A stretch of DNA of 32,000 nucleotides from Candidatus Lokiarchaeum ossiferum (GTDB taxonomy: Archaea; Asgardarchaeota; Lokiarchaeia; Sigyniarchaeales; Promethearchaeaceae): positions 240,001 through 272,000 of the forward strand of contig CP104013.1 of the NCBI GenBank assembly GCA_025839675.1, written 5' to 3'. This document shows positions 2,857 to 31,716 of this stretch, piece by piece (within the stretch, counting starts at the first letter, position 1; each line of letters begins with the position of its first letter). The translations under genes were made by a program, and so were the position numbers. The notes beneath the pieces were generated by a model. That model did not search any database, was not told the DNA's origin, and was given only the letters and a program-made list of their open reading frames with translations.

Positions 2857-3631
2857 ATAATTTATCAAATTCCTTCAAATGCAAGAAATGTCTGTAGGTT
2901 GACGTATTTTAAGAGTTTAGAACATCTGGTATAGGTTGAGATAGAATTTAAACCAGATCACCCGTATCTCCCTCTTTACATCCCCTCGAGTCCCCCGTCC
3001 CGTATTTTTTAAGATACTTTTCAAATTTTTTTAAGATACTCTTCTTTATTTTTACAATATTGTTATTTTAATTCTTTTTCTTTTTCTTTCTTTTCTAAAG
3101 CCTTATCTAAGGGATGGTAAACCCCCCTTCGCAAAATTTCGAGATGTTTTTTGAAAATCCAAATTCATATACTGACTTATTTTCAACTCTTCGCCACTTA
3201 TTTACTTTTGTCGGAGTAATTCAAATGGGTGCTAAAATTCAGTAAATCGAAAATAAAAGTCTGTTCTAACACACTGCACCTTTTAATTAGAAGATTATAA
3301 ATAATTATATTAGATTTATCAGCAATTCTAAGGAGCTAATTTTGTTCAATCATAAACAAAAATAGCTTTAGAATTCACTACAGCCTTCTGATTCTATTTT
3401 GTGACATTCCCAAATTCAAATGCAAGATAACCCTCAAAAATTACTTCTAAATGAGTAACAAAAAATTACTCACAAGTAAAATAAGTAAGAAAAAAGGTGG
3501 TGATTAAGCGGAAGGATATCTTGGAGTTGCTGATATTGATCTGGAGTAACATATATTTTTATTATGGTGATGGCATCGGAATCGAATGTTGAAAATTTCA
3601 AAGGATCCTCTAAAAGAGTATTTTTTTAATT

Positions 3632-3952
3632 ATATGAGGTTCTATCAAGATTTTCCAATTTAAACTTTTTTTGATTTACTTCGAGTTAATTAACCCGTTT
3701 TGAGAATTTATCCTATTTTCAATTTTGTCGAATTGAAATTTTGATCCTTTTATGAAATCGACTGTATGAAGTATATTTAATAATCTCATAGTTACTCCTT
3801 TTTTATTGAATTTGAGCGAGATAAAAATCTTAGAAATGATTTATCCAAAATCTAAATTGGAATATTAATGGGATAGATGGCTTATAAGTCGGCATAAATT
3901 TCACAAGGATGCCAAAATATTTAATCTAATAAATCTTGATAGAACCTCATAT
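3632..3952. repeat. 22-bp perfect inverted repeat pair (3632-3653 atatgaggttctatcaagattt / 3931-3952 reverse complement) bounding a 321-bp segment; MITE-like or invertible-segment-like
   Basis: Read directly from the sequence. The arms are exact reverse complements separated by 277 bp. No obvious target-site duplication. Confidence 0.8.
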
Positions 3953-4075
3953 GTCAAAATTGTTCGTAATGAAAAATGGATATTTCAGATTTTCTTCCTA
4001 TGATCAAAAAATATCTTTTTTCAATTCAATTGGTAGGAAACCCTTTTATGTTTTTTTTACTTTGATTTTTTTAAA

Positions 4076-4999
4076 ATGGAAGAAGAAATGACAGAATTTG
4101 GTCCACAAGGATGGAAGCAATTTATTCAAAATCGGGAAAAAATTTTAAATACCATTGATACAGAAAGAAAAGCACATGAAAATCAACAAGTTCAAACCGA
4201 CTATGGTTTTTTAGCAGAACAAAAGTTAAATGAATGGCTAAATGAATTTCTTCCAAAAAGATTTGCTGCGACGAAAGGATATGTGGTTTCTGATAATTAT
4301 AAATTTTGGAACGAAGAAAATTTGGAAGAATATGATATTATTATATATGATCAATTTTTAAGCCCAGTATTATGGAGCTCTTCAAGAGGAGATGATCCTA
4401 AAAGAATAATTCCGTTTAAATATGTACACGCAGTTTACGAAGTAAAGGGAAAATTCAACAGCACAAAAACTAAAGAGGCAATTGAAAAGCTTTCTAAATT
4501 AAACATGTATATAAATTCAAATAATAATCAATTAGAGATTGATTATCCAACGACACCGATTAAAACACATTTCCATGCCGGAATGATATTTATTGATGTA
4601 CCTGACGATACACCACATCCTGCTGCAGCTCTTTATCATTTAGTTCCCGACCAGTATTTAAATTACATAAAAGTTGGTTTAATAATGAGATCACATCAAC
4701 GAGATGTTCGAGATAGTGCTTTAATTTATTACAATTACAAAACACATTCTGATGAAATTGTATGGAGAGATGAAAAAATCTATGATAATGGGGTTCATGA
4801 ATCTAAAACAAAGTATTATTCAACGGTGAATGGAGTAGATTTACATTGTTATGCGGGAATTCAATGGCGTAGAGATATGTTTTCAACATTTATCTTTTCT
4901 CTACTTGATATATTGAATTTTAGTGCATCTACTCATTGTAATCGATGGCTGTTAAATCCTTCAAATCTATATGGTGTTGGATTTAATAGAACAGAATAA
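4076..4999 (+). CDS. PD-(D/E)xK restriction-endonuclease-fold protein (DUF6602-like N-terminal domain)
   Basis: EYDIIIYD ... VHAVYEVKGKF gives a D...E-x-K core. The preceding LNEFLPKRF..KGYVV pattern resembles DUF6602-type nucleases (from memory, not searched). Confidence 0.65.
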   Translation: MEEEMTEFGPQGWKQFIQNREKILNTIDTERKAHENQQVQTDYGFLAEQKLNEWLNEFLPKRFAATKGYVVSDNYKFWNEENLEEYDIIIYDQFLSPVLWSSSRGDDPKRIIPFKYVHAVYEVKGKFNSTKTKEAIEKLSKLNMYINSNNNQLEIDYPTTPIKTHFHAGMIFIDVPDDTPHPAAALYHLVPDQYLNYIKVGLIMRSHQRDVRDSALIYYNYKTHSDEIVWRDEKIYDNGVHESKTKYYSTVNGVDLHCYAGIQWRRDMFSTFIFSLLDILNFSASTHCNRWLLNPSNLYGVGFNRTE

Positions 5000-5316
5000 G
5001 TCTGATTTACCATATTTTTTAATATTTACTTTCTAAGTCATATAAACTTGAGATTTTTCATTCTTTCAGCAATATTGATACCCTTAAACAAATTTTGGAC
5101 ATCTCTCCTTATTGTTTCTCATGATAATAATGAAAAAACAATCATTTTTGTTTATTTGCAGATTTTTTAAGAACTAATCCATTTTTGATATTATTAAAAT
5201 GAAACAGATTGATTTCCAACAAGTAAGAAGAAAATGCAACACGTACACCTTTTGTTATTGTTTGCAAAAAATGAACCATAAATGGTTGATGAAAAAAAAA
5301 TAATCAAATTCAAGCT

Positions 5317-6231
5317 TTAGAATGCATAATAGCAATCCTTGCACAGAGGTTTACTATCCGTTATGCCACTTTGTTTAGTACCACAAATATGACATTGTTT
5401 CCCAAAAATACTACCGCGATATTTTTTATTTTTGAAGTAACATGGTTTGCACATTGGATGGGTAGGATCTAGTTCGATTTCCTCCCCACAAATGATACAA
5501 TTGCCTTGAATTTTCCGAATGTTTTTAATTTGGGTGTATTCAACATCCAAACCGTATTTCGTACGATTCCAATTCTTTATAACTTCAGCTTCATACCAGC
5601 TCCCATCTTTTAAACCCGGTGCATTAGCAATCAAGATTTTATTTTCATAACCCTCATCTGTTTCAACTTTAATCCATTTATTCCCTTTAGAGAGAACCAT
5701 GAATTTCTGTATTGAAAATTGTTCCTTGGAATTTTTCGCTAAAGTTGTTTCCTCTAGATTTTTCTTCTTTTCACTAACAGTTTTCTGTCCAGCACTCATT
5801 AAATATTTAATATGTTCCCGAACATCCAAAACTTTATCACGTTCTTCAAATAAAACTCCAATTTCATGGTTTTTTTCTGCAGAATGTTGATACATATTCA
5901 TGGACGTGACAAGTGCTGTCGTTTCGTTATAATAAACTTTAGAATGAAGATCATCAACCACATATACCCTGCATCTGTCAAGATATGGCGATAATTCATC
6001 GAGTGATTTGTTATTGCCATTTGGTTGGTTTCGAGTAATAATTGTAATTTCAATTTCATTTTTCTCATTATCATTCAAAACGTATTTCAAAGCATCGTTC
6101 AAGCGAGGCCATCCATCTAATTGAATATATGGGCTTACAATCATCAATTCTTTTCTTGCCCGTTTGATTATACTCAGAATTTCTGCTGTAACACCATCTG
6201 TTTCAGTAATTACTTTAACCATTTTTATCAA
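5317..6231 (-). CDS. phospholipase-D-family (single HKD, Nuc-like) nuclease fused to two C-terminal CxxC...CxxC zinc ribbons
   Basis: LHSKVYYNETTALVTSMNM is an H-x-K ... (T/G)S-x-N HKD-type motif, with the H codon at 5944-5946. The C-terminus carries CIICGEE...CKPC and CHICGTK...CKDC. Confidence 0.75.
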   Translation of the reverse strand: MIKMVKVITETDGVTAEILSIIKRARKELMIVSPYIQLDGWPRLNDALKYVLNDNEKNEIEITIITRNQPNGNNKSLDELSPYLDRCRVYVVDDLHSKVYYNETTALVTSMNMYQHSAEKNHEIGVLFEERDKVLDVREHIKYLMSAGQKTVSEKKKNLEETTLAKNSKEQFSIQKFMVLSKGNKWIKVETDEGYENKILIANAPGLKDGSWYEAEVIKNWNRTKYGLDVEYTQIKNIRKIQGNCIICGEEIELDPTHPMCKPCYFKNKKYRGSIFGKQCHICGTKQSGITDSKPLCKDCYYAF

Positions 6232-6466
6232 CTTTTTAGACTTAGTTCTAAATAGTAATTTATGGAAAATCTTTAAAAATTTATGCAGAATTGTTGATTA
6301 CAGAAAAGATATATAGATTTCACAAATGAAATCTATTTTCATTAAGTACAAAAAAACTTCTAACTTATTAACTACATATATACAACGTAGAGTACTTCAT
6401 TAGTAAAGCATTGGAAATACGCGGAATCATCTCAAACACAATATTTGAGTACTCAATCCGCAAGGT

Positions 6467-7381
6467 TTACGTTCTTTTCCAAAAATTATTAAAATATTGT
6501 TCTTGACAAAATTGTTCAAGCTTGTTTCCATTTACATAAATTCTTTCAACAGATTGCATTAATAGTAATTCAACAGGTAAAAATGTCAGCTCATTGCAAG
6601 ATAACGTTAATAATTTGAGCTTTTTCAAACTTAACAATTGTTCAGGGAGACTTTTAAGTTGATTCATTCCTAAATTCAGTTCTTCCAATTTTTTAAGATT
6701 ATTAATATCTTTAGAAAGTTCAGAAATCTGATTATCTAAAAGGTAAAGTATTCTAAGAGAAGAGATTGAAAATAAGATGTCGGGAATTTTGGTAATTTTA
6801 TTTGTTCTTAGATATAAACTCCGAAGTTTGGTTAAATTTCTGATACTTGAAGGGATTTCCTCTAATCCACATCGATATAGGCTTAAATGAAGAATGTATC
6901 CATTAGAAGATTTAAAACCAATGCTATTGTATCGAAGAACAGTTTTTTTAGGAATTGGGAATCCAAGTATTGATTCAATCTTATCTAAGAATTCTATTTG
7001 ACTTGCATACAAGGGTTCTCCATAATAATTATGGATAGGTTCATTATTCGAGTTTTTAATTTTTGCTTTCCGCTTCGCAAAAGTCTTCTCCTTTTCTTTT
7101 GCTAGATCTATTATTATTTTTTTTCTGTTTTGCTTGATCTGATATATTTCTGATGGATTTAACAAATTATCAGCGTTTTGATATTCTTCAAATAATATCC
7201 ACTTATTATTCTTGGAGATTAATAAGTATTCAACGCCAATCATTTCATGAAAGATAGAAAAACGATTCCATTTAAGTGAAACTGTCCTACATTTACACTT
7301 TTTCGACTTTTTATGAAAAATTTCCCCACATAATAGACATTGATAGGTATATTTTTTTAGATTTTGTGAATATTGTTCCAT
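6467..7381 (-). CDS. zinc-ribbon + leucine-rich-repeat (LRR) protein
   Basis: N-terminal CLLCGEIF...KCKC. The C-terminus holds about six LRR units of 22-23 aa (LTKLRSLYLRTNKITKIP, LSSLRILYLLDNQISEL, LKKLEELNLGMNQLKSLP, LKKLKLLTLSCNELTFLP). Confidence 0.8.
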   Translation of the reverse strand: MEQYSQNLKKYTYQCLLCGEIFHKKSKKCKCRTVSLKWNRFSIFHEMIGVEYLLISKNNKWILFEEYQNADNLLNPSEIYQIKQNRKKIIIDLAKEKEKTFAKRKAKIKNSNNEPIHNYYGEPLYASQIEFLDKIESILGFPIPKKTVLRYNSIGFKSSNGYILHLSLYRCGLEEIPSSIRNLTKLRSLYLRTNKITKIPDILFSISSLRILYLLDNQISELSKDINNLKKLEELNLGMNQLKSLPEQLLSLKKLKLLTLSCNELTFLPVELLLMQSVERIYVNGNKLEQFCQEQYFNNFWKRT

Positions 7382-7454
7382 CTCAAATCCTTTTTTCTTA
7401 TCTTTAGTAAAATTAGGTTGGAATAATGATAATAAAAACTTTTACTCGAATGTA

Positions 7455-7511
7455 TGAGTAATACTACTCATCAACAGAACAATAATTGGATTTATTAAGT
7501 AATATTACTTA
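7455..7511. promoter_or_regulatory. two related palindromes (TGAGTAatacTACTCA 7455-7470; perfect 16-bp TAAGTAATATTACTTA 7496-7511) upstream of the HTH gene; candidate operators
   Basis: Read directly. The centres are 41 bp apart and the second ends 21 bp upstream of ATG 7532. Confidence 0.4.
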
Positions 7512-7531
7512 TTATTAATTAGTGAAATAAT

Positions 7532-7849
7532 ATGGTTAAAATGACACAACAACAGAAAGATGATCGTGATACCAAGATCAAAGAGTTGATTAAAGATGGA
7601 CTAACAGTAGCACAAATTGTTAAGGAAGTCGGGTGTTCTAATTCCACTGTTTTAGATTTTACTCAACCCAAACATAATATTGGTTCAAGTAATATTACTC
7701 ATAACGAATTAACACCTGAGATTAAAAGTTCTATCGGTGTTATGATTGAGCTATTTAAAAACTCATTAGATATTCCAGAGTTCGTTGATTCAATTGATTT
7801 GAACATTAGAAAGGCAATTTCATCATTGGAGGCAATTATTGATGAGTGA
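7532..7849 (+). CDS. small helix-turn-helix DNA-binding protein
   Basis: GLTVAQIVKEVGCSNSTVLDF is a typical HTH segment near the N-terminus. Palindromes lie immediately upstream. Confidence 0.6.
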   Translation: MVKMTQQQKDDRDTKIKELIKDGLTVAQIVKEVGCSNSTVLDFTQPKHNIGSSNITHNELTPEIKSSIGVMIELFKNSLDIPEFVDSIDLNIRKAISSLEAIIDE

Positions 7850-8213
7850 AACCTTTGAGGAAGCTTTTCAGCGAAAAATAAAAGAAAAAGGAGTTATTAA
7901 AAGTAAAGATATTGCACTTGAAGAGAAAAATAAACCTTCTTTCAAAGATCCCACAAAATCCAATAAGAACCCAATTTTGAAAGAAAAAATTAAGAAGGAT
8001 AAACAACCCAATAAGAAAAGAAACATGTCTCCAAAGGCAAAAGAATCAGAAACTAAAGCGAAATTTGAGCCTACAATTTCATGGTATAGAGGTCAAGCGG
8101 AACTTTTAGCTGGAGGTTATGTGAAGGGAACTCGAGGTTCAAAAATTGATGCAATTGATGTTATGATTATTGAATTGGAGAAACGTAAATTACAATTAAT
8201 TTCTAAAATGTAA
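7842..8213 (+). CDS. lysine-rich hypothetical protein, translationally coupled to the HTH gene
   Basis: ATG 7842 overlaps the upstream stop (ATGAGTGA). GGAGG at 7828-7832 lies 9 nt upstream. Confidence 0.55.
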   Translation: MSETFEEAFQRKIKEKGVIKSKDIALEEKNKPSFKDPTKSNKNPILKEKIKKDKQPNKKRNMSPKAKESETKAKFEPTISWYRGQAELLAGGYVKGTRGSKIDAIDVMIIELEKRKLQLISKM

Positions 8214-8442
8214 TTTTTTGATTCTTTTTTGAAAATATTAACGGAAGACTGCTCAATTCCGCATTTTCATGCACAAGATAGTCATCTGTGAGTCTAAAGG
8301 TTGTATCTGTTTCATCTATCTCAAAAAATACCTTCAATTCCAATTTCTGAAGAAATTTTCTTATTTCAGGTGATTGAATTTTTGTAATGTCTACAGGGAG
8401 CTTGAGTAACATAGTTAAATTAAGTGAAAAAAAGAGTATCAA
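8203..8442 (-). CDS. small hypothetical protein (possible true start at the internal ATG, about 69 aa)
   Basis: It lies 40 nt downstream of, and co-oriented with, 8482-9441. TTG start. It overlaps the 3' end of the plus-strand ORF by 11 nt. Confidence 0.3.
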   Translation of the reverse strand: MILFFSLNLTMLLKLPVDITKIQSPEIRKFLQKLELKVFFEIDETDTTFRLTDDYLVHENAELSSLPLIFSKKNQKITF

Positions 8443-8481
8443 AGGGGGTATGATCGGGGAAGTATCAATGAAATCTGGATT

Positions 8482-17500: not shown

Positions 17501-20115
17501 TTCAGTATGGAGATATAATTGGGTATTTTCTCCAGCATATTGAAGAGGATAAGAAGGGGAATCATTCCTTATTATGGATAAAAGGGACATCGGGCAATAT
17601 TGGAAGAATAAGTGAAACATATTTGGAATTAGTCGGATTGTATTTACTTGAATCAGAAATATTTGAAATGGTCGATTCTCCTGCCCAAGGAAGGCTATTA
17701 AGGACCTTTACCGCCGAATCTCGAAGTTATGAACCCTTTTTTACCTTAGCTGGAAAAAAACTGGAAGAACCATTAACTAAAATTCCTTTTGTATATAACA
17801 ATAAGAAATCGCATAATAAACCTGAAATGTTGTATTTAGATTATCTCATTCCAACACAATTAATTCAGTTTTGTAATCCGGAACAAGGAAGTATTTTAGC
17901 AGATAGAAGAGGAAGAGTAAAAAGGAAGATATTACAAGAATGGCATATTTTAGATGAGAATAGTCAGATCACGCTTATTACCAAAGTGCTTATCAATGCC
18001 TTACGCTCATTTTTCTTTGTCCAGCTAGGAAAATCCAATCCAGACCTAATTTCTGAGTTTGAAGTCCGTTTTTCAATATCGGAAATGATTTATTTATCTC
18101 AGCATCACAAGAAAAATTATTCTAATATTCCGGTGCTGTCTAAAATTCTTACGAGTCCTAAACAATTAGCTTTTCTAATAAGGAAATTTGCAAAAAAAAC
18201 GAAAGAAGGGAATATGGTTATCGTGGAGGACTCGGGGTTATCAGAAATTGCAGATAAAGTTGAAATTTGGCAGTATGCAAATCCCGGAATTATTGATTAC
18301 TCTGATAATTTACCAAAATGTAAATTTGAAACAATTATTAAAGAGATCTATCACCCTCTCCAACATCCATTTACTTTGATAGATGGTGAGATTGGATGTG
18401 GAAAAAGTGTTTTACTCGCTCAAATCGCAATAAACCAGTTAGAGCAAAATAAAACAATTTACATATTGCAACCCTTTGTCGAATTGTCCCGAGTTCCCGA
18501 CATTAAACCAAATTCTTTAATCATCATTGATAATATCGACGCTTTATCAGATCATCAATTACAGATAATTAATTTATGGTATAATATCAAGGAGATACAA
18601 GTTATTGCGACTATTAGATCAGAAAAGATGAAAGCCTTTCGTAATCGATTTAATATCTTAAATCCATTACCAAATTCACTTAGTAGATGGCATTCTGTCA
18701 AATTCTCCAATTGGACGATTAAAGAATTAATTGAACTAATTGAACATGAAAAAAATTACTGGGGAATTGCATCGGGAATTGAAAATTATAGGGAAGAAAT
18801 ATTGGAGATTTCAAATGGAAATTGCACATTTTCAACCGGAATATTGAAAAACCTCCGATTTAAAGGAAAAAAAGTGCTGTTACGAAGCGATCTTTTTGAA
18901 CCTGTTGAGGCAATGGGTTCAAAAATTTTGCGATTATTAGCCGAACTTTACCTCGATGAAAATAGTCAAATAATCTCCGAAAATGCTACCAATGAATTAA
19001 AATTGATATGGATAATTCTTATGGCATATCGAAAAATTCCAATTGAACAAATAGAACCAAAAATAAATTATTATCGAGGTTTACCAGATATATTATTTAA
19101 AAGTCTTTTAGATAATTTGCACGTAGACTTGCAAAGTGATGATTCTTACTTATCGAGTATTTTTCCCGCAATTTTGAGAGGGAATTCCATAAAAATTCCC
19201 CCAAATATTGCTTGGAAGCAATATATTTTAGATATCAAAAACGGTGGATTAATTTTATTTATGAGGAATAAACAAGGGAATTCTTCTTTTTTTGAATTGG
19301 AAAGATGGGCTCAAATTCTAAAGATCTTTCAGAATATTCAAGAAGAACAAGGAGAAAGTATTTTTCAACTCTTTAAGAATATTATTCAAGAAATTGTGAA
19401 TTCAAATGATTTCGATTTTCATGAATTGATTCATATTATCTGTTTTACAATTGGATTTTATTACGATAGAGGGTTTTATGAATATTTTCCTTCAGAATTT
19501 TGGGAAAGCAAGAATTATCAAGAGATGTTCAAAAGTTTCAACAATGGAGAAATGATTGAATTTATTCAAATCATCCTTTCTACTATTTTGTATTCTTATA
19601 TGCCAATTTCTTTAGAAATTCCACAGGAAGTTATATTTAAACCGCTAAAAATTGTTGAAAGCATAATTAGTTATGCAGAAACAGATTTGAAAATTCTTGT
19701 TCCTAATTTAATTAAAACACAACTATATGGCTTTCAAGGAAAATTCCATTTCTATTTTCAAAATATAGAAGAAAGCCTAACTTCTTTCTTAAAGGTGGAA
19801 TCCCTCCCACAATTTTCAGAGATGGATTTAGAGATTCAAATGGAAATCTTAGAAGAAATTATATCGATTTATCTTATTCAGAAGAAACCTGAAATAATGG
19901 AAGCTTGGTTGACTAAAATAAAAGATGTTGATCAGAAAATGTGTAACAACCTTAATCGCTTTCCAAAAATACTTCAACCACATGTACATGAATTACATGC
20001 ATCCTATCTATTCATTTTATCACGATATTATGAAATAAGAGGTGATACTGAGAAGAAAGATGAACTCTTCATGGAAGCAAATATATATAAAAAGGAATGG
20101 AATATTGGAAAATAA
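14560..20115 (+). CDS. giant TPR-repeat / unknown middle region / P-loop STAND-like NTPase / helical C-terminal protein (1851 aa; ATG 14569 may be the true start)
   Basis: Many canonical 34-aa TPR units occur in the first ~800 aa (e.g. AEYNTLGLIYLYARKFENAIQSFKTSIEYNP, KFQLGNAYESRRDYQRAIKIYTEILQIDP). Walker A GEIGCGKS is encoded at 18385-18408 and Walker B LIIIDNID at 18517-18540. Confidence 0.85.
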   Translation: MKIMSHKTYTKLEAMLKELVQLITSENFTYETNYYAQILFIHEISVSLKNQSSLGKSIEGKIKSILDYLLQNKIEEIPQDLLDEEKIQILKLGINKFLNINNFNAADKGLQLLGNIKSENKFAIIYQTRLLCNQNKFKDARVKLNQIQIPNKKTEKYLFFSTKFNILVQKSNIEEWKNFEKQIKEYIPDDVSLARMTSIQIYKLEGEFEKAISLQQEVINELKAHEDTHSFVYSAEYNTLGLIYLYARKFENAIQSFKTSIEYNPTSLNLKFQLGNAYESRRDYQRAIKIYTEILQIDPSNPKVVTTLANMISRDGNPDNAIKMYRKLMDNKSYVEQNGYFFKNLALAYFRKGDFKNAEINHNIAIEKDPNNHQFYYHRGTFYLHSMKYNKSKHDLLKAIELFPSHPDYWNQIGNVYLNQNLVEDATTAFQECVKLDPIHFSALFNLGLVHYFQKKPSIALKFLQKAEKSCPSQFLVYFYQGVIHLKNIQYKKASKCFLIALKLEKPTKLMQERFEKFELDILCGLYHCHFELQQNEEALTIGQTLMKKTEKNIESNEIFVSNIESVQDPTSFLLIIKRNYAVLLERIGKYEEAIEILSDHRPSNSFLFDENHKERCFQLTSIMYLHKKEYINARNAIWHALSNRESSLSYFICGFIEFKLKTQDSQKNFKVSVQILYESQVNLFLYFENLKILFEFCEKFHFTSSFKKISAFQPSFAQLTQKTSSIEQFNIIPYQLWYKIIMFSICIDSTQEFMIEKLEELNERSQSKFSEWLDYWEMLLHLGIKYKKTQKIKRVLKKMFALNPNYKIRSKLWNNEIIGKQEVLKLKLSEKIKQQKQVDLTEERYVFKFRDRGFWHKGDYYIILDTGETGSEFREGPNNYYIKDQVDLGLSSKRMGLNTNDNINEEEKQKFQELMENLHTQVFLTDKTETNFQSNLTELFGMNNSGTMNYFLSKDDIQAIKEYNEIIKKSPEYLKQYGIIQYGDIIGYFLQHIEEDKKGNHSLLWIKGTSGNIGRISETYLELVGLYLLESEIFEMVDSPAQGRLLRTFTAESRSYEPFFTLAGKKLEEPLTKIPFVYNNKKSHNKPEMLYLDYLIPTQLIQFCNPEQGSILADRRGRVKRKILQEWHILDENSQITLITKVLINALRSFFFVQLGKSNPDLISEFEVRFSISEMIYLSQHHKKNYSNIPVLSKILTSPKQLAFLIRKFAKKTKEGNMVIVEDSGLSEIADKVEIWQYANPGIIDYSDNLPKCKFETIIKEIYHPLQHPFTLIDGEIGCGKSVLLAQIAINQLEQNKTIYILQPFVELSRVPDIKPNSLIIIDNIDALSDHQLQIINLWYNIKEIQVIATIRSEKMKAFRNRFNILNPLPNSLSRWHSVKFSNWTIKELIELIEHEKNYWGIASGIENYREEILEISNGNCTFSTGILKNLRFKGKKVLLRSDLFEPVEAMGSKILRLLAELYLDENSQIISENATNELKLIWIILMAYRKIPIEQIEPKINYYRGLPDILFKSLLDNLHVDLQSDDSYLSSIFPAILRGNSIKIPPNIAWKQYILDIKNGGLILFMRNKQGNSSFFELERWAQILKIFQNIQEEQGESIFQLFKNIIQEIVNSNDFDFHELIHIICFTIGFYYDRGFYEYFPSEFWESKNYQEMFKSFNNGEMIEFIQIILSTILYSYMPISLEIPQEVIFKPLKIVESIISYAETDLKILVPNLIKTQLYGFQGKFHFYFQNIEESLTSFLKVESLPQFSEMDLEIQMEILEEIISIYLIQKKPEIMEAWLTKIKDVDQKMCNNLNRFPKILQPHVHELHASYLFILSRYYEIRGDTEKKDELFMEANIYKKEWNIGK

Positions 20116-20130
20116 AAAAATAAGAAAATA

Positions 20131-20174
20131 GAGATATTTGGTGAACTCTAAAGAGATATTTGGCGAACTCTAAA
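20131..20174 (+). repeat. exact tandem 22-bp direct repeat x2 (GAGATATTTGG[T/C]GAACTCTAAA)
   Basis: Read directly. One mismatch between units. Located 16 bp after the stop of the giant gene. Confidence 0.9.
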
Positions 20175-20239
20175 CAATTATTTCACTTCTTTGGAGAGGA
20201 AAATATAAGAATTAGATGGTCACCAACAAAAGGTGTAGA

Positions 20240-20264
20240 CATCACAGTAACATCACAGTAACAT
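20240..20264 (+). repeat. tandem 11-bp repeat CATCACAGTAA x2 plus a partial third unit
   Basis: Read directly. About 100 bp upstream of ATG 20366. Confidence 0.85.
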
Positions 20265-20365
20265 TTTAAAATTTGAAATTATTACAAGATAGCTAAATTT
20301 AATAAGATATTTTTTCTTAAAAACATACAATCTGATAGTAATTAAATTGAGAAAGGCAAAAGAAA

Positions 20366-22408
20366 ATGTCAATTGCAAAAGGATTTTTTGATAATGAAGT
20401 TATTCAGCAAATAAAGTCAGGTAATTTAGATATTTTTAATCAATTAACAAAAGATATGGAGAAAATTGTAAATACTCAAATTAAGTTTAATAATTATAAA
20501 ATAAAAAAAATTTTTACATCTCCAAATTTGTCAGCAGGTAATCCACCTAGGATAATTAATCCTGATTGTGAATCTACAATTATTGTGGGACCAAGTGGAG
20601 CTGGAAAGACAACCTTTTTTGATAAAGTAATTCACCCAATAATTAGTTCAAATACAATTAAATCACCTATCAGAGAATACGTTAATGGTTTAAAAATAAC
20701 GTATTCAGTATCCGATAAAAAACCTCAGAAAGACAAAACTAGAGATGATTTAACATTTCAATTCACAACAACACTACCTAACGAGGTTTCTTTGATAGTT
20801 AATAATAAAAAATCAATTGAAAATAAAAAAATCTTGAAATCTCTGGGTTTGTATGACAATTATTTGAGTGCTTTTTTTTTTGTTAGTGGTCAAAACGATC
20901 ATTTACAGCTTTTCTCAAATTTTCAAGGAAATATCGCTCAATATAAGAGATTTTTTTATCACCCTACTGATTTAGAAGTTGTTAAATTATATGAAAGTAC
21001 GATAAATGAAATGTCTGAGATTTTGCAAGATAATAATTCTCGAATAAATCATATTGAAACTAGAAAAAGAAGAATTGAAGATTATATTACCAAATTGCAG
21101 AAAGAAATTATAGAATACCAGATGTTATTAGACAATAGCACAGATATAAAAATTTTAATTGATAAATTGCGAGCCAATTCAAAATTTAATGCATTGCGGG
21201 AAGAGTTAAAAGAAAATAGGAAGAAAATTGATAATATTGATGATAAAATATTGATTGAAAATCAGATTATAAAAGACAAGCAAAATAAAAAGATTTCAAG
21301 AAAATTTTCAGATGAATACCACCGATTTATTCGTGAGCAATACAATTCTTCCTTCAAGAGGTGCTTAATATGCTATGAGGAAATCAATTTCAATAAATAT
21401 CACAAAGCTTTTGAATCAGGAAGTTGCTATTTATGTAATTCAAAGTATCATGGATATGAAAAATATAATGGTACCATGTTTATTAAGGAAGAAAACAAAA
21501 CAAAAAAAATCCAAAAAGGTTTACTGCATTTTATTACTGATAAATCGAATTTACTCAAAGAAAAGGAAGAAATAATTAAAAGAATCAAAGAAAAGGAAAA
21601 ACTTACATTTTCCGATGAAGAAATACGTTTAAAAAAGATAATATCGCCATTTTACATGGAAATCACTAGGACGCATCGAAATTTTGAAGATCTTCTTAAT
21701 AATTTCGCAGATATTAAAAGTTCTAAAGAAGAAATGATTACAGGATATAAAGAAAATGTTTTTGATTATAATAAAGAAATAATCAAACTCAAAAAAATAC
21801 AAAATATTCTAAAAAAAAAATTTGAAATTATAAATGTAATATATAAAAATTTTATAGAAAAGTTAGAATTAGATATTAAAGATGTATATGAAGTATTTTG
21901 TGATAAAATATCTCAATTTTGGTCTCAGTTATCCCAGATTTCTGACAAAAAAATTCAAGAAAAAAATGGAAGACTTTATGTTGTTACAGTCTCAAAAGGG
22001 AGTCTTCTCCCCATTACAACTAAAATTACAGGTTTAGATCCAAAACAAAAAAGACTTTCTACAAACATGGTAGAAATATTAAGATATTCTATTCAATTAG
22101 CTTTTATTTATTGTTTATCTACCAAATTTCAAAAAACACCCTTTAAAGTAATATTTTTTGATGATCCAAATCAGAAATATCTCAGATCCCTTATAAATTT
22201 GTTAAACTCAACATTTGTTAATGACCTAAATTTTCAAATAATAATTTTAACACATATGGAAGAGGTCGAAACTTCATGGAAAAAAGAGGAATTCGATTTC
22301 TATGATGGAAATATGCCTATGTCAAATGATGCATGCTCATTAATAGTTAAAAATTGGAGATCTGGTGAATCAAATGATGTTAATTCTGAGGAGAATAATA
22401 AAAATTAG
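20366..22408 (+). CDS. Rad50/SMC-like ABC ATPase with a coiled-coil insertion carrying a CxxC...CxxC zinc ribbon
   Basis: Walker A GPSGAGKTT (20588-20614). Long K/E/I-rich coiled-coil-like middle. CLICYEE...CYLCNSKYH (21362-21435). Signature-like LSTNM..., Walker B VIFFDD (22148-22165) and H-loop-like IILTH near the C-terminus. Confidence 0.85.
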   Translation: MSIAKGFFDNEVIQQIKSGNLDIFNQLTKDMEKIVNTQIKFNNYKIKKIFTSPNLSAGNPPRIINPDCESTIIVGPSGAGKTTFFDKVIHPIISSNTIKSPIREYVNGLKITYSVSDKKPQKDKTRDDLTFQFTTTLPNEVSLIVNNKKSIENKKILKSLGLYDNYLSAFFFVSGQNDHLQLFSNFQGNIAQYKRFFYHPTDLEVVKLYESTINEMSEILQDNNSRINHIETRKRRIEDYITKLQKEIIEYQMLLDNSTDIKILIDKLRANSKFNALREELKENRKKIDNIDDKILIENQIIKDKQNKKISRKFSDEYHRFIREQYNSSFKRCLICYEEINFNKYHKAFESGSCYLCNSKYHGYEKYNGTMFIKEENKTKKIQKGLLHFITDKSNLLKEKEEIIKRIKEKEKLTFSDEEIRLKKIISPFYMEITRTHRNFEDLLNNFADIKSSKEEMITGYKENVFDYNKEIIKLKKIQNILKKKFEIINVIYKNFIEKLELDIKDVYEVFCDKISQFWSQLSQISDKKIQEKNGRLYVVTVSKGSLLPITTKITGLDPKQKRLSTNMVEILRYSIQLAFIYCLSTKFQKTPFKVIFFDDPNQKYLRSLINLLNSTFVNDLNFQIIILTHMEEVETSWKKEEFDFYDGNMPMSNDACSLIVKNWRSGESNDVNSEENNKN

Positions 22409-22422
22409 GAGTACTATGGAAA

Positions 22423-23001
22423 TTGAGTAAAAAAACCAGATCAATTATCAATTTAGTGTTAGATAAGTTCATTTTGAATAAATATAAGCAAAAAATAGAT
22501 GAAAAGTATTTAAAAAGTTTGTTTGTTGTATGTAAAAAACTAGAAAAGGAATTTTCAATATTCAATTTAGAAAAATTTATTTTGGGAATAAAATTTGAAG
22601 AAAAATTATATAATGAATCCATATTTAAAACTGCAAAAAAAACAATTCCAAAAAAAATTCTTACTGAAGATGCAGCTGTTGGATTGGCTTTCTGTTTTTT
22701 ATTCAAAATTTGTCCAGATATAACTGAAATAGAATGTTATCAGGCAGAAGGAGAAGGATATGATTACAGGTATCGAATCGGAGATCATTTTTACAAAATT
22801 GAAATGAGTGGGACAGATACAGAGATTTCTAAATATTTTACTGATCGAATTTATGCAAAAAGACAAAAATTTAAAGATGGTACATATTGGGAAGATAACT
22901 TCGAAAAAGAAGAAATTTTTATCGTTGATTTTCATTTCGACAGATATACTTATTGGGATTCAAAAGTACATGATAATATAAAGCAAGGTAGATTAAATTG
23001 A
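22423..23001 (+). CDS. hypothetical protein, second gene of the ATPase operon; weak PD-(D/E)xK-like pattern
   Basis: TTG start 11 nt after AGGAG (22407-22411), with no in-frame ATG nearby. EDAAVGL...GEGYDYRY...YKIEMSG could be an E...D...E-x-(S) degenerate nuclease core (speculative). Confidence 0.55.
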   Translation: MSKKTRSIINLVLDKFILNKYKQKIDEKYLKSLFVVCKKLEKEFSIFNLEKFILGIKFEEKLYNESIFKTAKKTIPKKILTEDAAVGLAFCFLFKICPDITEIECYQAEGEGYDYRYRIGDHFYKIEMSGTDTEISKYFTDRIYAKRQKFKDGTYWEDNFEKEEIFIVDFHFDRYTYWDSKVHDNIKQGRLN

Positions 23002-23813
23002 TTGGATTATATTCTGAAGATGTTGAAAAACATATCAATATTATTAAAAAAGAAAAAACTAGTCTCATCATCAATCTTAGGAACAATAGTGATGAAGAAA
23101 AAGATGATAATTATAGAAGAATAATTAGATTAGAACTTGAAATTGCAGATATGGAGATAATACGTGGATTTTATAATAAAGCGATAAGCAATATAAAAAA
23201 TGGCTTGATATTTTTAGACAAACTTCAAAACTCACATCATTTTATTGAAAAAATTTGTTTAAGAGGTCTAATTGAAGAAAAATTTTCATCAGAAAATAGA
23301 GAATTGTTTTTTAAATTTTTAATTAAAGATAAGGATCCTATTGACGAGGATTTAGAACAAATTTCTGATTCATTAAGAAATACTTTTGCTTATATCATTG
23401 ATGAATTTGTTGAAAATAAATTTAAAGCGAATCTCCAGAACCTAAATAAATCTCATTTCTATTTATATCAAAACACTCCTTTTAGGTACTTAGATTTGAT
23501 TCCAAAACCAATTATTAAAATTGGCTCATATCCGCTCTATTCGGAGCATTTTAATACATTTTTCTCGGTTTATTCTGAGAATTGGGATTTCTTCTCAATA
23601 AAAGATAATCTTGTACATCCAAGCCTTGAATACAATAGACTTCTTATATTCGCGAATTCATTTAAACGTCGAATTGCTGAGCAAAATGTTAAAATTTTGA
23701 CATTTTATGAAAACCTTCTTAAAAGTTTTTCAAATTGGAAAACTGATGAAATTAAAGAATGGGAAAAAAAGACACAAATACTAAATCATTTTGGTAGAGA
23801 TGCAAAGATCTAA
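22998..23813 (+). CDS. hypothetical alpha-helical protein, third gene of the ATPase operon
   Basis: TTG 22998 overlaps the upstream TGA (TTGA), suggesting translational coupling. No family recognised. Confidence 0.6.
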   Translation: MIGLYSEDVEKHINIIKKEKTSLIINLRNNSDEEKDDNYRRIIRLELEIADMEIIRGFYNKAISNIKNGLIFLDKLQNSHHFIEKICLRGLIEEKFSSENRELFFKFLIKDKDPIDEDLEQISDSLRNTFAYIIDEFVENKFKANLQNLNKSHFYLYQNTPFRYLDLIPKPIIKIGSYPLYSEHFNTFFSVYSENWDFFSIKDNLVHPSLEYNRLLIFANSFKRRIAEQNVKILTFYENLLKSFSNWKTDEIKEWEKKTQILNHFGRDAKI

Positions 23814-24270
23814 TGAGGATAATTATTATATTAAAAGAAAGGTCCGATTCATAATTGAATAAAGCAGAACCTGAGTCAATAAAATGAGATTTTTGATTTT
23901 CTTGGAAATAACTCAGTTTTTTGCGAATATTTATTAAAAATTTTCAAAATTTCCAATATTTCGAATATTTATCCATTTGGGTATATCTCCATTGAAAAAT
24001 GGAATCAATTTTTGCTCGTAAATCCTTTGAAGAAGGACATTTCTTCTCAGAGAGAGAAGCGAAGGCACGGTAAACATACAGCCATCCAAAAAGACAATAT
24101 ATGACTTTGCTCAAGTATCAATTGAAGTAATTTTGAGTGATAATTCAATTCAAAGAAACTAACAACGATTAAATTTATGAATAGAAAGTAAAAGAAAAAT
24201 TAACAAAAAAGCAATTCTAATAGATAAAACCAGTCAATTTCTCAAGAAAGTCCAAATTTTCTACATTATT

Positions 24271-24294
24271 ATGTAGGGATGTAGGGATGTAGAA
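24271..24294 (+). repeat. tandem octamer ATGTAGGG x2 plus a degenerate third unit ATGTAGAA, preceded by the inverted CTACAT (24261-24266)
   Basis: Read directly. About 90 bp upstream of ATG 24384. Confidence 0.7.
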
Positions 24295-24383
24295 GATGAT
24301 GGCTTAAGATAGGGAGTTGAATTATATAACTTGGCATACTTTTCTAGGTCTTTTTAAAATATTGTAACTAAAATATTCCTAAT

Positions 24384-24746
24384 ATGAATATAAAAACAGA
24401 TAACGATTTTTTTGATTTCATGCAGGAAGAAGTAATAAATCTTTTAAAAAAAAATAAAAGTGGATTAACAATAGAGCAAATATTGATTGCTATTAAGAAA
24501 AAAGGATATAATCTTCTTGCAGTTGACGATATTTGGCAAATTAGATATGGTATTTCTTTAATCAAAGAATTAGAAATACAAATTGGTGAAGATTTGAAAA
24601 ATGAGTTAGATAAACTATCCGAAAATCCATATACAAACCTATCTTTCGAAGAAAGTGTAGAAAGACTTAAATCTATTAAAGAACAGTATGTAAAAGAATT
24701 GTTTCTTTGGAACAAAGCAATGGGTCTCCCAATTAAGCGAGAGTGA
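24384..24746 (+). CDS. hypothetical small protein, possibly winged-helix-like
   Basis: Preferred over the fully overlapping antisense ORF 24368-24715, whose S/F/L/I-rich composition is typical of the antisense of K/E/N-rich coding sequence. Confidence 0.5.
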   Translation: MNIKTDNDFFDFMQEEVINLLKKNKSGLTIEQILIAIKKKGYNLLAVDDIWQIRYGISLIKELEIQIGEDLKNELDKLSENPYTNLSFEESVERLKSIKEQYVKELFLWNKAMGLPIKRE

Positions 24747-24856
24747 AGATTAAATCGGAGATCACAAAAATCTTAATGCATATCCTTTAAATCGAAAGTG
24801 ACATATTTTACAAATCTTTAGGATAATTATAAAACATTAGTTAAAGATAAAACCAT

Positions 24857-24937
24857 GGTTTAACGATGGTTAAACCAATTCTTGATATATTTTTTATAAT
24901 TTCTTGAGGGTATATAAGGGTTTAACCATCGTTAAAT
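24857..24937 (+). repeat. 18-bp perfect inverted repeat (24859-24876 TTTAACGATGGTTAAACC / 24919-24936 GGTTTAACCATCGTTAAA) with attC-like outer cores GTTTAAC (24858-24864) and GTTAAAT (24931-24937)
   Basis: Read directly. Each arm is itself a small palindrome (GGTTTAAC-gatg-GTTAAACC). The AACCATGGTT palindrome at 24851-24860 abuts it. Confidence 0.85.
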
Positions 24938-24941
24938 TTTA

Positions 24942-24967
24942 AGACCCACTCCCCCTCAGAGCCGCCA
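24942..24967 (+). repeat. copy B of the intergenic repeat core: AGACCCACTCCCCCTCAGAGCCGCCA
   Basis: Read directly. It is G+C-rich in an AT-rich spacer. Confidence 0.9.
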
Positions 24968-25943: not shown

Positions 25944-25960
25944 TCCCCTCAGAGCCGCCA
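25944..25960 (+). repeat. copy C of the repeat core: TCCCCTCAGAGCCGCCA
   Basis: Read directly. Located in the divergent spacer between 25663 and 26075. Confidence 0.9.
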
Positions 25961-26074: not shown

Positions 26075-26650
26075 ATGGATAATATTCTCCAGAATGCAGA
26101 CATTCTACATAAAGAAGCTAGTGATTTGTTATCCTCAATGGGACTTTTAAAATTACTAACTCAATATGGTAATTCCCATCTCACAGGCAGTTATTATTAT
26201 AATTTAATGACTTGGCGAGATATTGACATATGCGTGGAAATTGATTCTGTCGATAAAACAAAGATATTTGAGGTAGGGAGAGCAATTGCTCTGTTTCCTT
26301 ACACCTCTACTATGTATTTTCGAAACGAATTTGTTTTAAACACGGTTGGTAACCCCAAAGGAATCTTTTGGTGTGTGGAGATTTTACTCCCGAGTTCACA
26401 GTTATGGAAAATAGATATTTTATTTGCAAATAAAGAAGAAATTCACAAAATCCTTAAAAATGGAGAGGAAATTAAACAAAAAGTTACTCCAAGTATTCGA
26501 AGATCTATATTGGAAATAAAGACCCCCCTATCTAAAAGGCTAGAATATCGCAGGAGTTATCGATCAGTAGATATATATCATGCGGTGATTCATGACGGGA
26601 TACGAACGGTAGGTGAGTGGGATATATGGTGGAAAGCAAAAAAAAGATAA
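26075..26650 (+). CDS. polymerase-beta-fold nucleotidyltransferase (MNT/ANT-like)
   Basis: LTGSYYYNLMTWRDIDICVE matches the G-S-x(9-13)-D-h-D-h motif. A third acidic residue lies in WKIDILF. Confidence 0.65.
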   Translation: MDNILQNADILHKEASDLLSSMGLLKLLTQYGNSHLTGSYYYNLMTWRDIDICVEIDSVDKTKIFEVGRAIALFPYTSTMYFRNEFVLNTVGNPKGIFWCVEILLPSSQLWKIDILFANKEEIHKILKNGEEIKQKVTPSIRRSILEIKTPLSKRLEYRRSYRSVDIYHAVIHDGIRTVGEWDIWWKAKKR

Positions 26651-26670: not shown

Positions 26671-26737
26671 GACCCACTTCCCATCAGTACTCTCAAGTCT
26701 AAACCAAAAAAAAGACAATTCCCCCTCAGAGCCACCA
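26671..26737 (+). repeat. copy D: degenerate unit GACCCACTTCCCATCAG (26671-26687) followed by a good unit AGACAATTCCCCCTCAGAGCCACCA (26713-26737)
   Basis: Read directly. It begins 21 bp after the stop at 26650. Confidence 0.85.
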
Positions 26738-29550: not shown

Positions 29551-29570
29551 ATTCCCCCTCAGAGCCGTCA
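29551..29570 (+). repeat. copy E of the repeat core: ATTCCCCCTCAGAGCCGTCA
   Basis: Read directly. Located in the convergent spacer between 29447 and 29597. Confidence 0.9.
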
Positions 29571-31230: not shown

Positions 31231-31716
31231 TTATTTTTCATAAGTTTTTAATTTGGAACCAATCATTTGGGTTGTAAGGTCTGCTAAAAAAAGATAAAAC
31301 TTTTGGAGTTTTACTAATTCATCTAATGTGGCATCATGATATTGATTTTGAAAGAGATATTGAATATTATCTTTATTCATTGTGGGAGGAAAAGTTCCCC
31401 GAGGTTGTGTTAAGAGAATCGAAGAATTGGTAATGATTTTTAACATTTTTAAGCCGATGTCAGTGATACGATATGTTTTTGCTTTTTTATTACTATTAAG
31501 AACAAGTTCTATAATCAGATCATCTTGCATTTCAGTGAGAATTGGATAAAGCGAACCAGGTGATGGTTTCCAGTGATCCAAGGATACTTCTTGAATTTTT
31601 TTGATTATATTTGATCCTGTCATTTTTGGATACTCCCCCTCTAAATTTTGGGTACCAAACATCATCAATATTGTGGGATGGAGAAACCCGCGTTTAATGC
31701 GATCAAGCCATTTCAA
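31231..31716 (-). CDS. PadR-family winged-helix transcriptional regulator (start uncertain: TTG 31716 or an internal ATG)
   Basis: MTGSNIIKKIQEVS...PSPGSLYPILTEMQDDLIIE...KTYRITDIGLKML matches the PadR G.lYp.L..Le..Gli ... Y.lT..G pattern. Confidence 0.7.
   Translation of the reverse strand: MKWLDRIKRGFLHPTILMMFGTQNLEGEYPKMTGSNIIKKIQEVSLDHWKPSPGSLYPILTEMQDDLIIELVLNSNKKAKTYRITDIGLKMLKIITNSSILLTQPRGTFPPTMNKDNIQYLFQNQYHDATLDELVKLQKFYLFLADLTTQMIGSKLKTYEK

Follow-up and report, generated by a model that had tools for sequence, protein, structure and literature searches.

Positions 4076-23813 of a 32,000-nucleotide stretch of the chromosome of Candidatus Lokiarchaeum ossiferum B35 (contig CP104013.1, positions 240,001 to 272,000; hereafter the window, from whose first letter all coordinates are counted) are best read as a mosaic, strain-variable antiviral defence island composed of at least eight independently mobile modules, a reading to which we assign a probability of roughly 0.8. 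The island is real yet fairly ordinary, and as a whole it is a shuffled accessory region and not a retained package. Its evolutionarily stable core is an operon of two genes encoding a Zc3h12a/Regnase-type NYN RNase and a prokaryotic viperin (pVip). The closed genome of B35 (CP104013) comprises 6,035,313 bp (PMC9834061), and the same DNA is also found in a 70-kb Logan contig.

A defence island brings together several unrelated defence families and varies among close relatives. Both features are seen here: the families are clustered, and the variability consists of the published absence of viperin from the sister strain B36 and of differing neighbours in more distant relatives. The block contains the following features, including the open reading frames (ORFs) without a family match; the basis of each call is given in brackets.

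4076-4999, plus strand: NucC-like/DUF6602 nuclease of the restriction-endonuclease fold (Pfam, PADLOC).
5317-6231, minus strand: PLD-family (HxK) nuclease, DrmC/DpdK-like, with four C-terminal CxxC motifs (PLDc_2, DrmC).
6467-7381, minus strand: leucine-rich repeat (LRR) protein, with an N-terminal CxxC and C-terminal leucine-rich repeats (LRR_8).
7532-8213, plus strand: two small overlapping ORFs of 105 and 124 aa, possibly a regulator (HTH_7).
8482-9441, minus strand: Schlafen-type AlbA_2 protein (aa 26-156), with an uncharacterised C-terminal half (SLFN_AlbA_2).
9575-10594, plus strand: AbiJ-N-terminal-like protein with an NDT/TIR-like Rossmann-fold domain (aa 209-339), a predicted nucleotide/NAD N-glycosidase effector (PADLOC, AlphaFold, Foldseek).
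10861-12220, plus strand: 350-aa PD-(D/E)xK-like protein, then a 75-aa Cys-containing ORF (sequence motif).
13079-13969, minus strand: prokaryotic viperin, a radical-SAM (S-adenosylmethionine) protein (PADLOC, NCBIfam, PDB alignment, motif).
13970-14449, minus strand: Zc3h12a/Regnase-type NYN RNase, 159 aa (PF11977, PDB matches).
14450-14559, no strand: palindromic intergenic region of 110 nt, a candidate shared operator/promoter (inverted repeat).
14560-20115, plus strand: tetratricopeptide repeat (TPR)-STAND protein, 1851 aa (TPR_2, nSTAND_NTPase5, Walker motifs).
20366-22408, plus strand: LmuB-like SMC/Rad50-type ATPase (PADLOC LmuB PDLC03859, motifs).
22423-23813, plus strand: two ORFs of 192 and 271 aa that overlap by 4 nt, directly downstream of the LmuB-like gene, candidate effector- or kleisin-like Lamassu partners (operon spacing).

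Fourteen ORFs of at least 100 aa lie between 4076 and 23813, and six of them match PADLOC models at E<=1e-6, compared with none of the ten flanking ORFs (Fisher one-sided p = 0.022), where the best PADLOC match has an E-value of 0.0077. Nine ORFs of the neighbourhood belong to defence-associated families and the flanks contain none. The clustering of defence families exceeds chance. The right flank and the region beyond it carry ordinary genes, for a YcxB-like protein, a membrane protein, an R2K ATP-grasp protein, a CPBP protease, PadR, a nitroreductase and an MFS transporter. The window is AT-rich, with a GC content of 0.24-0.33, and neither a tRNA nor an Rfam match was found in it. A scan for sigma-70 promoters and intrinsic terminators returned the same counts as shuffled sequence and is uninformative for an AT-rich archaeon. 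An initial annotation, made from the letters alone, had recognised six domain types in these 20 kb (viperin, Regnase-type NYN RNase, Schlafen AlbA_2, a TIR/NDT-like domain, LRR, and TPR with STAND); profile or structure searches recovered every one of them at its place and overturned none. The classical nucleases and the SMC-like module that it had listed alongside were also recovered, as the NucC-like/DUF6602 and PLD nucleases and a full-length LmuB match.

On the basis of these families, the proposed modules are the NucC-like nuclease, the LRR protein together with the PLD nuclease, the Schlafen-AlbA_2 protein, the AbiJ-NTD protein with its NDT/TIR-like N-glycosidase domain, the PD-(D/E)xK-like protein, the NYN-viperin operon, the giant TPR-STAND nucleoside triphosphatase (NTPase), and the Lamassu-like LmuB ATPase with its two partner proteins. 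Each would be expected to act like its family. The nucleases would cut invader DNA, the N-glycosidase would deplete or modify nucleotides or NAD, and the SMC-like ATPase would sense DNA ends or replication structures and then release an effector. What the analysis shows directly is which domains are present, the Asgard provenance, the order of the genes, that the NYN-viperin pair and the palindrome next to it are conserved, and that the remainder of the island is not. The biochemical activities, the pairing of sensors with effectors, the co-regulation of genes and the antiviral role of the island are all what we infer from family membership and context.

The viperin gene is identified with little ambiguity. 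Its product matches the PADLOC pVip model over profile positions 1-256 of 257 (226.8 bits, E 7e-68) and scores 233.6 bits against the NCBIfam equivalog NF038283, for which the cut-off is 180. The radical-SAM motif NxHx4Cx3Cx2CF lies at aa 9-24 (NLHLTNRCNYHCKFCF), and aa 4-278 can be aligned with the solved fungal, cnidarian and mouse viperins in the PDB, including the C-terminal extension. The nearest viperins are two metagenomic proteins with 68-69% identity; the JGI contig that encodes one of them also encodes an NYN protein (76% identical) and a TPR-STAND protein (68%). Next come P. syntrophicum MK-D1 (50%), metagenome-assembled genomes of Promethearchaeum (48-49%), other uncultured archaea (42-48%) and a Heimdallarchaeote (37%). 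The best bacterial viperins, from cyanobacteria and myxobacteria, reach at most 39% identity, and a eukaryotic viperin, EukProt P0073 (185 bits), outscores most bacterial ones. The archaeal origin of the contig, raised by the initial annotation only as a supposition, is thus borne out, and is specifically Asgard: the nearest viperins are from Lokiarchaeia (42-69%), and all named relatives of the neighbouring NYN protein are from Asgard archaea.

The NYN protein matches the Pfam family RNase_Zc3h12a (PF11977) over aa 10-135 with 37.2 bits (cut-off 23, E 3e-9), and its only meaningful PDB sequence matches are ZC3H12A, ZC3H12B, ZC3H12C and KHNYN (E 1e-4). Residues D11, N14, D48, D81 and S97-N98-D99 are invariant across 11 family members, and D81 and the SND triplet align with the YDD and SND motifs of Regnase-1. 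These invariant residues correspond to the active site of Regnase-type enzymes, from which an active RNase is predicted. Like Regnase-1/ZC3H12A and KHNYN, the protein keeps the catalytic residues (equivalents of DxxN, D and SND). Unlike them, it is a stand-alone domain of low similarity that ends at aa 159 without any other Pfam domain, and it lacks both the CCCH zinc finger of Regnase-1 proper and a KH domain. The clade to which it belongs is small; an exhaustive profile search found seven representatives at E<=1e-30 and 224 at E<=1e-10. The five relatives that carry a taxonomic name are all Asgard (Promethearchaeia, Promethearchaeota, Heimdallarchaeota and Heimdallarchaeaceae), and the profile had no match in viral contigs.

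The stop codon of the NYN gene abuts the ATG of the viperin gene, and the gap between the two genes is 0-2 nt in the window, in the related locus L091 and in P. syntrophicum (L004). This spacing indicates an operon in which NYN comes first. In 93 retrieved loci, searched with the island proteins (tblastn) and with a hidden Markov model of the NYN family (hmmsearch), NYN was the only island protein to recur beside viperin. It adjoins viperin in six of the eight assessable distinct loci of the Loki clade, and in none of about 72 viperin loci from bacteria and other archaea. The NYN gene immediately precedes viperin in the window, L091/L092, P. syntrophicum, L007 and L008, and follows it, in a more divergent form, in L006; no NYN gene was found beside viperin in the Loki-clade loci L005 and L009. 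L010 was left out of the count, its flank being too short. No report of an association between viperin and NYN was found in the searchable literature, and the term 'NYN' is absent from the main texts of the Asgard defence paper, the viperin evolution preprint and the archaeal survey.

Viperin turns CTP, UTP or GTP into chain terminators of the type 3'-deoxy-3',4'-didehydro-NTP (ddhNTP). The viperin of B35 would make ddhNTPs that stall viral polymerases, and the NYN endoribonuclease co-translated with it would break down viral or aborted transcripts, so that the operon would be a dual-effector cassette. Other Asgard viperins are active in E. coli (PMC11291487; bioRxiv 10.1101/2023.09.13.557418). 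The pVip systems described so far include viperin-kinase pairs and an archaea-only type consisting of 'viperin + TPR-domain protein' (Bernheim et al. 2021, as cited in PMC12988326). The window viperin resembles known pVips in exceeding the NCBIfam equivalog cut-off, in belonging to the Asgard clade and in being encoded alongside a TPR-containing protein. Unlike in viperin-kinase pairs, the operon partner is a Zc3h12a-type NYN RNase and not a nucleotide kinase. The arrangement also departs from the archaeal viperin-TPR type, since the neighbouring TPR protein is a divergently transcribed 1851-aa STAND NTPase that matches no PADLOC viperin-associated model at E<=0.01.

Several relatives of the NYN gene occur in other surroundings. 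In two proteins from Promethearchaeia (P0255 and P0260; loci L094-L096), a TPR array at the N-terminus is joined to a Zc3h12a-type NYN domain at the C-terminus, and one such fusion is labelled by its source merely as 'tetratricopeptide repeat protein'. P0255 is not beside viperin; its surroundings are metabolic, not defence-related, and it adjoins a HepT/MNT pair. In L089, an NYN homologue is divergent to a gene for an 849-aa TPR protein, across another spacer of 110 nt and with no viperin present. In L093 (376-2936), an NYN homologue (45% identical) lies 0 nt from a bona fide ThiC radical-SAM gene (359 bits), which is followed by a methyltransferase gene; this is the second case of the NYN family directly before a radical-SAM enzyme.

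The surroundings of the NYN-viperin pair differ from one relative to the next. In P. syntrophicum MK-D1 (L004, 4956-15400), the pair lies among two Card1-type CARF proteins, one with a MarR helix-turn-helix (HTH) domain, an SF1 helicase and a Gabija-like OLD/TOPRIM ATPase; the two-gene core is that of the window, but the defence island around it is another one. In L091, the genes downstream of viperin are unrelated to those of the window. Among strains, pVip is present in B35 and absent from B36 at 97.2% average nucleotide identity, and the two strains have only two defence systems in common (bioRxiv 10.64898/2026.02.13.705702). The initial annotation had proposed a comparison with close relatives to see whether the locus is a variable hotspot, and the differing neighbours in P. 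syntrophicum and L091 fit such variability. Its other suggestion, of an immune toolkit kept together in one place, is at most partly supported by the same comparison: B36 lacks viperin, the MK-D1 pair sits in a different island, and the downstream genes of L091 differ. An empty-site allele was not found, as exact look-ups of three flanking proteins (26075-26650, 2437-2856 and 31231-31716) returned only B35-type assemblies. It is also reported that a B36 provirus is unable to infect B35 despite a near-identical integration site, and that pVip is the sole defence protein of B35 missing from its proteome data (bioRxiv 10.64898/2026.02.13.705702). Either observation could relate to the island.

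Divergent from the NYN-viperin operon is the gene for the TPR-STAND protein. The protein consists of a TPR array at about aa 190-520 (TPR_2, E 3e-35), some 750 aa without a detectable family, a P-loop NTPase at aa 1267-1358, and a C-terminal region of about 490 aa. The match to nSTAND_NTPase5 (35.4 bits) is just over the gathering score of 34, and both Walker A (GEIGCGKS, 1276-1283) and Walker B (LIIIDN, 1320-1325) are present. There is no PDB sequence match for aa 560-1851, and relatives of the C-terminal half were not found in metagenome scans. The protein resembles the NLR-like Avs/nSTAND proteins in its P-loop STAND NTPase, its TPRs, its very large size and its setting in a defence island. 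It differs from them in having the TPR array before the NTPase and not after it, in the lack of a recognisable effector domain, and in about 750 and 490 aa that match no family. Since the TPRs are N-terminal, the domain order is atypical, and the tripartite STAND order of effector, NTPase and C-terminal repeats is not seen. The initial annotation had ascribed NLR/IFIT-like logic to this protein; the TPRs, the STAND P-loop and the Walker motifs fit this, but the tripartite NLR order and an effector domain were not found. A role as a sensor or switch is plausible. In a 250-nt gap just past the stop codon of the gene, before the LmuB-like gene, a 22-nt unit is present as a tandem duplicate (20130-20173, 95% identical).

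The NYN-viperin operon and the TPR-STAND gene are separated by 110 nt (14450-14559), nearly all of which form one long palindrome. Folded as RNA, this region reaches -41.9 kcal/mol (z = -6.1). Between the window and L091 it is 89% identical, compared with 76.5-85% for the flanking coding sequences and 63-79% for third codon positions (binomial p = 1.7e-6 against 70%). Conservation above that of the flanking coding sequences points to a conserved shared control element. L091/L092 also encode the first 430 aa of the TPR-STAND protein, 68% identical and in the same divergent position as in the window. In this species group, co-regulation of the NYN-viperin operon and the divergent TPR-STAND gene through the palindromic region is probable. 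More distant loci do not conserve the palindrome upstream of NYN, and a general adjacency of TPR and viperin genes was not seen among 80 viperin loci in a crude phmmer search, which found it only in the window, in L091/L092 and in one bacterial locus.

A more far-reaching proposal, to which we would give only a small chance, is that TPR-STAND, NYN and viperin form one co-regulated three-component system specific to Lokiarchaeia, in which the STAND sensor would control a dual effector made up of a chain terminator and a Regnase-type RNase, and both divergent units would be controlled via the 110-nt palindrome. Such a system is hinted at by the divergent layout and intergenic region kept in L091/L092, by the TPR protein of L089 across its 110 nt and by the TPR-NYN fusions, as well as by the purely Asgard set of named NYN relatives and the report that the 'viperin + TPR protein' type is exclusive to Archaea (PMC12988326).

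Of the six domain calls, the one for the AbiJ-like protein was the least certain. Its N-terminus resembles AbiJ_NTD4 (E 0.003, under the Pfam cut-off), and no PDB sequence match was found for the protein. The C-terminal domain matches a PADLOC TIR effector model with E 8.6e-7 over 73 residues and PDC-S32 with 9e-7, and has no Pfam TIR match. More than 2,100 homologues have the C-terminal ~140 residues in common, many with AbiJ_NTD3/5 N-termini. In an alignment-based AlphaFold model, aa 209-339 have a confidence score (pLDDT) of around 90. A Foldseek search of the PDB with this domain returned nucleoside 2'-deoxyribosyltransferases (NDTs) as the top 17 matches (E 1.4e-4 to 2.2e-3; target-normalised template modelling score 0.49-0.57), followed by DNPH1 and BcmB, and then by TIR domains. 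A FYEAG motif has its glutamate, E281, invariant in 30 sequences. As modelled, the domain has the Rossmann-like fold and the conserved nucleophile Glu after strand 4 that characterise the nucleoside 2'-deoxyribosyltransferase-like superfamily, and NDT-like is, on the model, a better description of it than TIR. The hedged label 'TIR/NDT-like' of the initial annotation was therefore apt, with NDTs ranked first, TIRs after and E281 invariant. The protein resembles AbiJ and the NDT-TIR N-glycosidase effectors (Thoeris ThsB, the SPARTA TIR) in its weak AbiJ-NTD module, its Rossmann-like domain and its invariant Glu. It is unlike AbiJ in that its C-terminal domain is not HEPN, and unlike TIR effectors in that the NDT match is stronger and Pfam TIR is not matched. 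The domain is 55-67% identical to proteins of Sphingomonas, Phyllobacterium, Bacteroidetes, Methanoperedens and Heimdallarchaeaceae; such identity across domains of life implies recent cross-domain horizontal transfer.

The three genes at the right end of the island are a Lamassu-like candidate. The LmuB-like protein matches PDLC03859 (E 4.8e-19) with aa 43-664 on profile positions 2-608 of 611, and has Walker A at 75-82, Walker B at 595-600 and a coiled-coil middle with CxxC motifs at 333 and 354. A PDB sequence match, a plasmid match (tblastn) and relatives in metagenome scans were not found for it. For the two ORFs downstream of it, no match was found to an LmuA or LmuC model or to anything in Pfam, PADLOC, NCBIfam or the PDB, and for this reason the operon is considered a Lamassu-like candidate and not a member. 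An apparent PD-(D/E)xK-like motif in the 192-aa protein is no more than a guess, a single-sequence AlphaFold (AF2) model of it being unusable at pLDDT 38. As in Lamassu, there is a full-length LmuB profile match, Walker A and B motifs, a coiled-coil middle and a three-gene operon. Unlike in Lamassu, the operon starts with LmuB, its neighbours match no LmuA or LmuC model, and the two CxxC motifs at the coiled-coil apex resemble the Rad50 zinc hook. No Lamassu system appears in the PADLOC/DefenseFinder list published for B35 (bioRxiv 10.64898/2026.02.13.705702). GC content falls to 0.24-0.26 at 20000-24000, where this operon lies, versus about 0.29-0.31 elsewhere, which is compatible with a more recent acquisition.

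The left half of the island contains smaller modules. The AlbA_2 protein matches PF04326 (SLFN_AlbA_2) with 56.8 bits (cut-off 25.3, E 4e-15) and PADLOC PDC-S50 (E 1e-9), and its sole PDB matches, SLFN5, SLFN8 and SLFN11, are weak (E about 3e-3). It shares the AlbA_2 core with Schlafens and differs from them in its low similarity and in lacking the linker/SWADL region and the helicase; aa 160-319 have no Pfam or PDB match. A public gene caller places a 69-aa ORF directly downstream of this gene (8203-8412, minus strand). The NucC-like nuclease matches DUF6602 (E 4e-18) and the PADLOC models PD_DExK (4e-17), NucC effector (9.2e-16) and NucC (4.2e-9). The window contains no CD-NTase or Cas10 cyclase that could be its partner; B35 is reported to lack CRISPR arrays, and its published system list is without CBASS (cyclic oligonucleotide-based antiphage signalling system; bioRxiv 10.64898/2026.02.13.705702). 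The PLD nuclease matches PLDc_2 (E 2.7e-10) and PADLOC DrmC (E 5.8e-9), and falls well under the cut-off of the NCBIfam DrmC model. Its gene is downstream of the LRR gene in the same direction, and from this gene order the LRR protein could be a sensor partner of the nuclease. The LRR protein itself has three LxxLxxLxLxxNxL repeats, matches LRR_8 (E 3e-13) and LRR_4 (E 1e-12), and has no PADLOC match. The 105-aa ORF has a weak resolvase-type HTH_7 match (E 2e-4, under the gathering score), and the 124-aa ORF matches nothing. A PD-(D/E)xK-like motif, D65...E79-V-K81, is suggested by the letters of the 350-aa protein, which has no Pfam, PADLOC or NCBIfam match.

The left edge of the island is probably marked by a further element, within a 1.2-kb non-coding gap (2857-4075).

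3632-3952, no strand: inverted-repeat element resembling a miniature inverted-repeat transposable element (MITE), with arms at 3632-3670 and 3914-3952.

Its 39-nt arms are 82% complementary and contain perfect cores of 22 nt. The short-read Logan assembly breaks between them (contig end at 3685, next start at 3922); this break was considered as a sign of a multi-copy repeat and the idea was rejected, the inverted repeat itself being the simpler explanation. As no clear function can be given to the genes at 1-2856, this edge is less certain. A closely packed, co-directional trio of genes at 1342-2856, which encode 223 aa, 132 aa (weak DUF5678) and a 139-aa retropepsin-like aspartyl protease (weak), may constitute a further accessory module. 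About 6 kb left of the window start there is a gene for a 1133-aa protein with a weak Prim-Pol match (L085, 1417-4818), and about 0.5 kb left of the window start one for a 222-aa protein with weak TIR_2 and zinc-ribbon matches (L085, 7034-7702). The variable or mobile region may extend left of the window.

A 15-nt motif, CCYCCTCAGAGCCGC, occurs in five intergenic copies, all on the plus strand, where none is expected (12294-12308, 24951-24965, 25944-25958, 26721-26735 and 29554-29568). Two of the copies are part of a 46-nt direct repeat (85% identical; 12263-12308 and 24920-24965) that brackets the viperin, STAND and Lamassu-like genes. The 46-nt repeats were considered as attachment (att) sites and rejected as such, as the core recurs three more times outside the block. 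The motif could be a dispersed regulatory element or one of the repetitive extragenic palindromic (REP) kind.

The same repeats bear on a different account of the island, in which an integrated mobile element delivered the whole block, or its 12.7-kb right half (12263-24965), as cargo in one event, as opposed to modules accreting at a hotspot. The MITE-like inverted repeat at the left edge, the bracketing 46-nt repeat, the lower GC at 20-24 kb, the Prim-Pol-like gene some 6 kb left of the window and the strain-specificity of the trait are all in keeping with it. However, the window contains no integrase, transposase or tRNA gene, the additional copies of CCYCCTCAGAGCCGC outside the block mark it as a dispersed intergenic motif and not an att site, and the NYN family and LmuB have no match in viral contigs and plasmids, respectively. 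We therefore regard delivery as a single cargo as unlikely. A second account would take the island for a set of proto-eukaryotic immune modules that ancestral Asgard archaea already possessed and that has been handed down vertically as a unit, and so for a picture of the toolkit that eukaryotes received. This reading gains from the confirmed Asgard provenance, from the Asgard origin of the nearest viperin and NYN relatives, and from the P0073 viperin scoring above most bacterial viperins. Published trees, moreover, place eukaryotic viperins beside Asgard or archaeal ones (PMC11291487; bioRxiv 10.1101/2023.09.13.557418; PMC12988326), so the link between Asgard and eukaryotic viperins mentioned in the initial annotation is already in the literature. 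Yet the island is not conserved: apart from viperin being absent from B36, P. syntrophicum has just NYN-viperin in common with the window, and L091 the TPR-STAND gene as well. The NDT/TIR-like domain is 55-67% identical to bacterial proteins, and the hallmarks of Schlafen (SWADL, helicase), Regnase (CCCH finger) and NLR proteins (NACHT/NB-ARC) are absent. Bacterial defence islands commonly contain the AlbA_2, LRR, TPR, STAND, PLD, NucC and LmuB families, which have largely been defined from them, so that eukaryote-like content is found in defence islands generally, not just in those of Asgard archaea. With the island being a shuffled accessory region, the co-location of eukaryote-like domains in it should not be taken as evidence of an inherited toolkit, and we consider an ancestral package very unlikely.

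It is at least as hard to credit that most of the genes are not immune genes at all, with TPR, LRR, STAND and NYN proteins serving Asgard signalling or RNA processing and their proximity to viperin being incidental. The TPR-NYN fusion P0255 in a metabolic neighbourhood, the NYN homologue before ThiC in L093, the missing pVip in the proteome and the several ORFs without any family would fit such a view, but the nine ORFs of defence-associated families, with none in the flanks, would not. Nor would the adjacency of NYN and viperin in six Loki-clade loci, with a gap of 0-2 nt where NYN is upstream, or the recurrence of the pair among defence genes in P. syntrophicum. A mosaic defence island remains the preferred reading, and several points weigh against it. 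The island-versus-flank statistic is only modest (p = 0.022), and the connection of any island gene to defence is drawn from families and context, not from experiment. Asgard genomes are rich in LRR and TPR proteins, which may have non-immune roles. Three of the modules look incomplete: LmuB is without a recognisable LmuA, the NucC-like nuclease without a cyclase, and the STAND protein without a recognisable effector domain. The left boundary is uncertain, as the island may also include the genes at 1-2856 and others beyond them, and the conservation of the palindrome rests on just two independent sequences. The absence of pVip from the B35 proteome implies that the operon may be silent or only induced. 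Finally, viperin is the only gene of this region called in the published PADLOC/DefenseFinder list.

Defence islands, Asgard viperins and the pVip of B35 have all been published, and prokaryotic defence islands typically hold many domains shared with eukaryotic immunity close together. What appears to be new is the Lokiarchaeia-specific NYN-viperin operon, the conserved palindromic control region between it and TPR-STAND, and the presence of unannotated candidate defence modules in a cultivable Asgard archaeon. In the published list for B35, pVip is the sole system that maps to the block (bioRxiv 10.64898/2026.02.13.705702), which makes the remaining modules unannotated candidates. These seven or so further modules, the Lamassu-like ATPase, the giant TPR-STAND protein and the LRR-PLD pair among them, are candidates for a largely unexplored archaeal defence repertoire. 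Since Ca. L. ossiferum is among the very few cultured Asgard archaea and a virus-host system exists for the sister strain, predictions about the locus are testable in a relative of the eukaryotic ancestor.

The NYN-viperin operon suggests that Loki-type archaea couple viperin immunity to the breakdown of RNA instead of to nucleotide kinases, and it prompts one to ask whether RNases of the Regnase/KHNYN type have the Asgard connection that has been proposed for viperin. If the three-component proposal were true, the system would be an archaeal counterpart of a eukaryotic sensor that induces viperin and antiviral RNases, and the Asgard-enriched NYN clade would join viperin as a second candidate for an immune module that connects Asgard archaea and eukaryotes.

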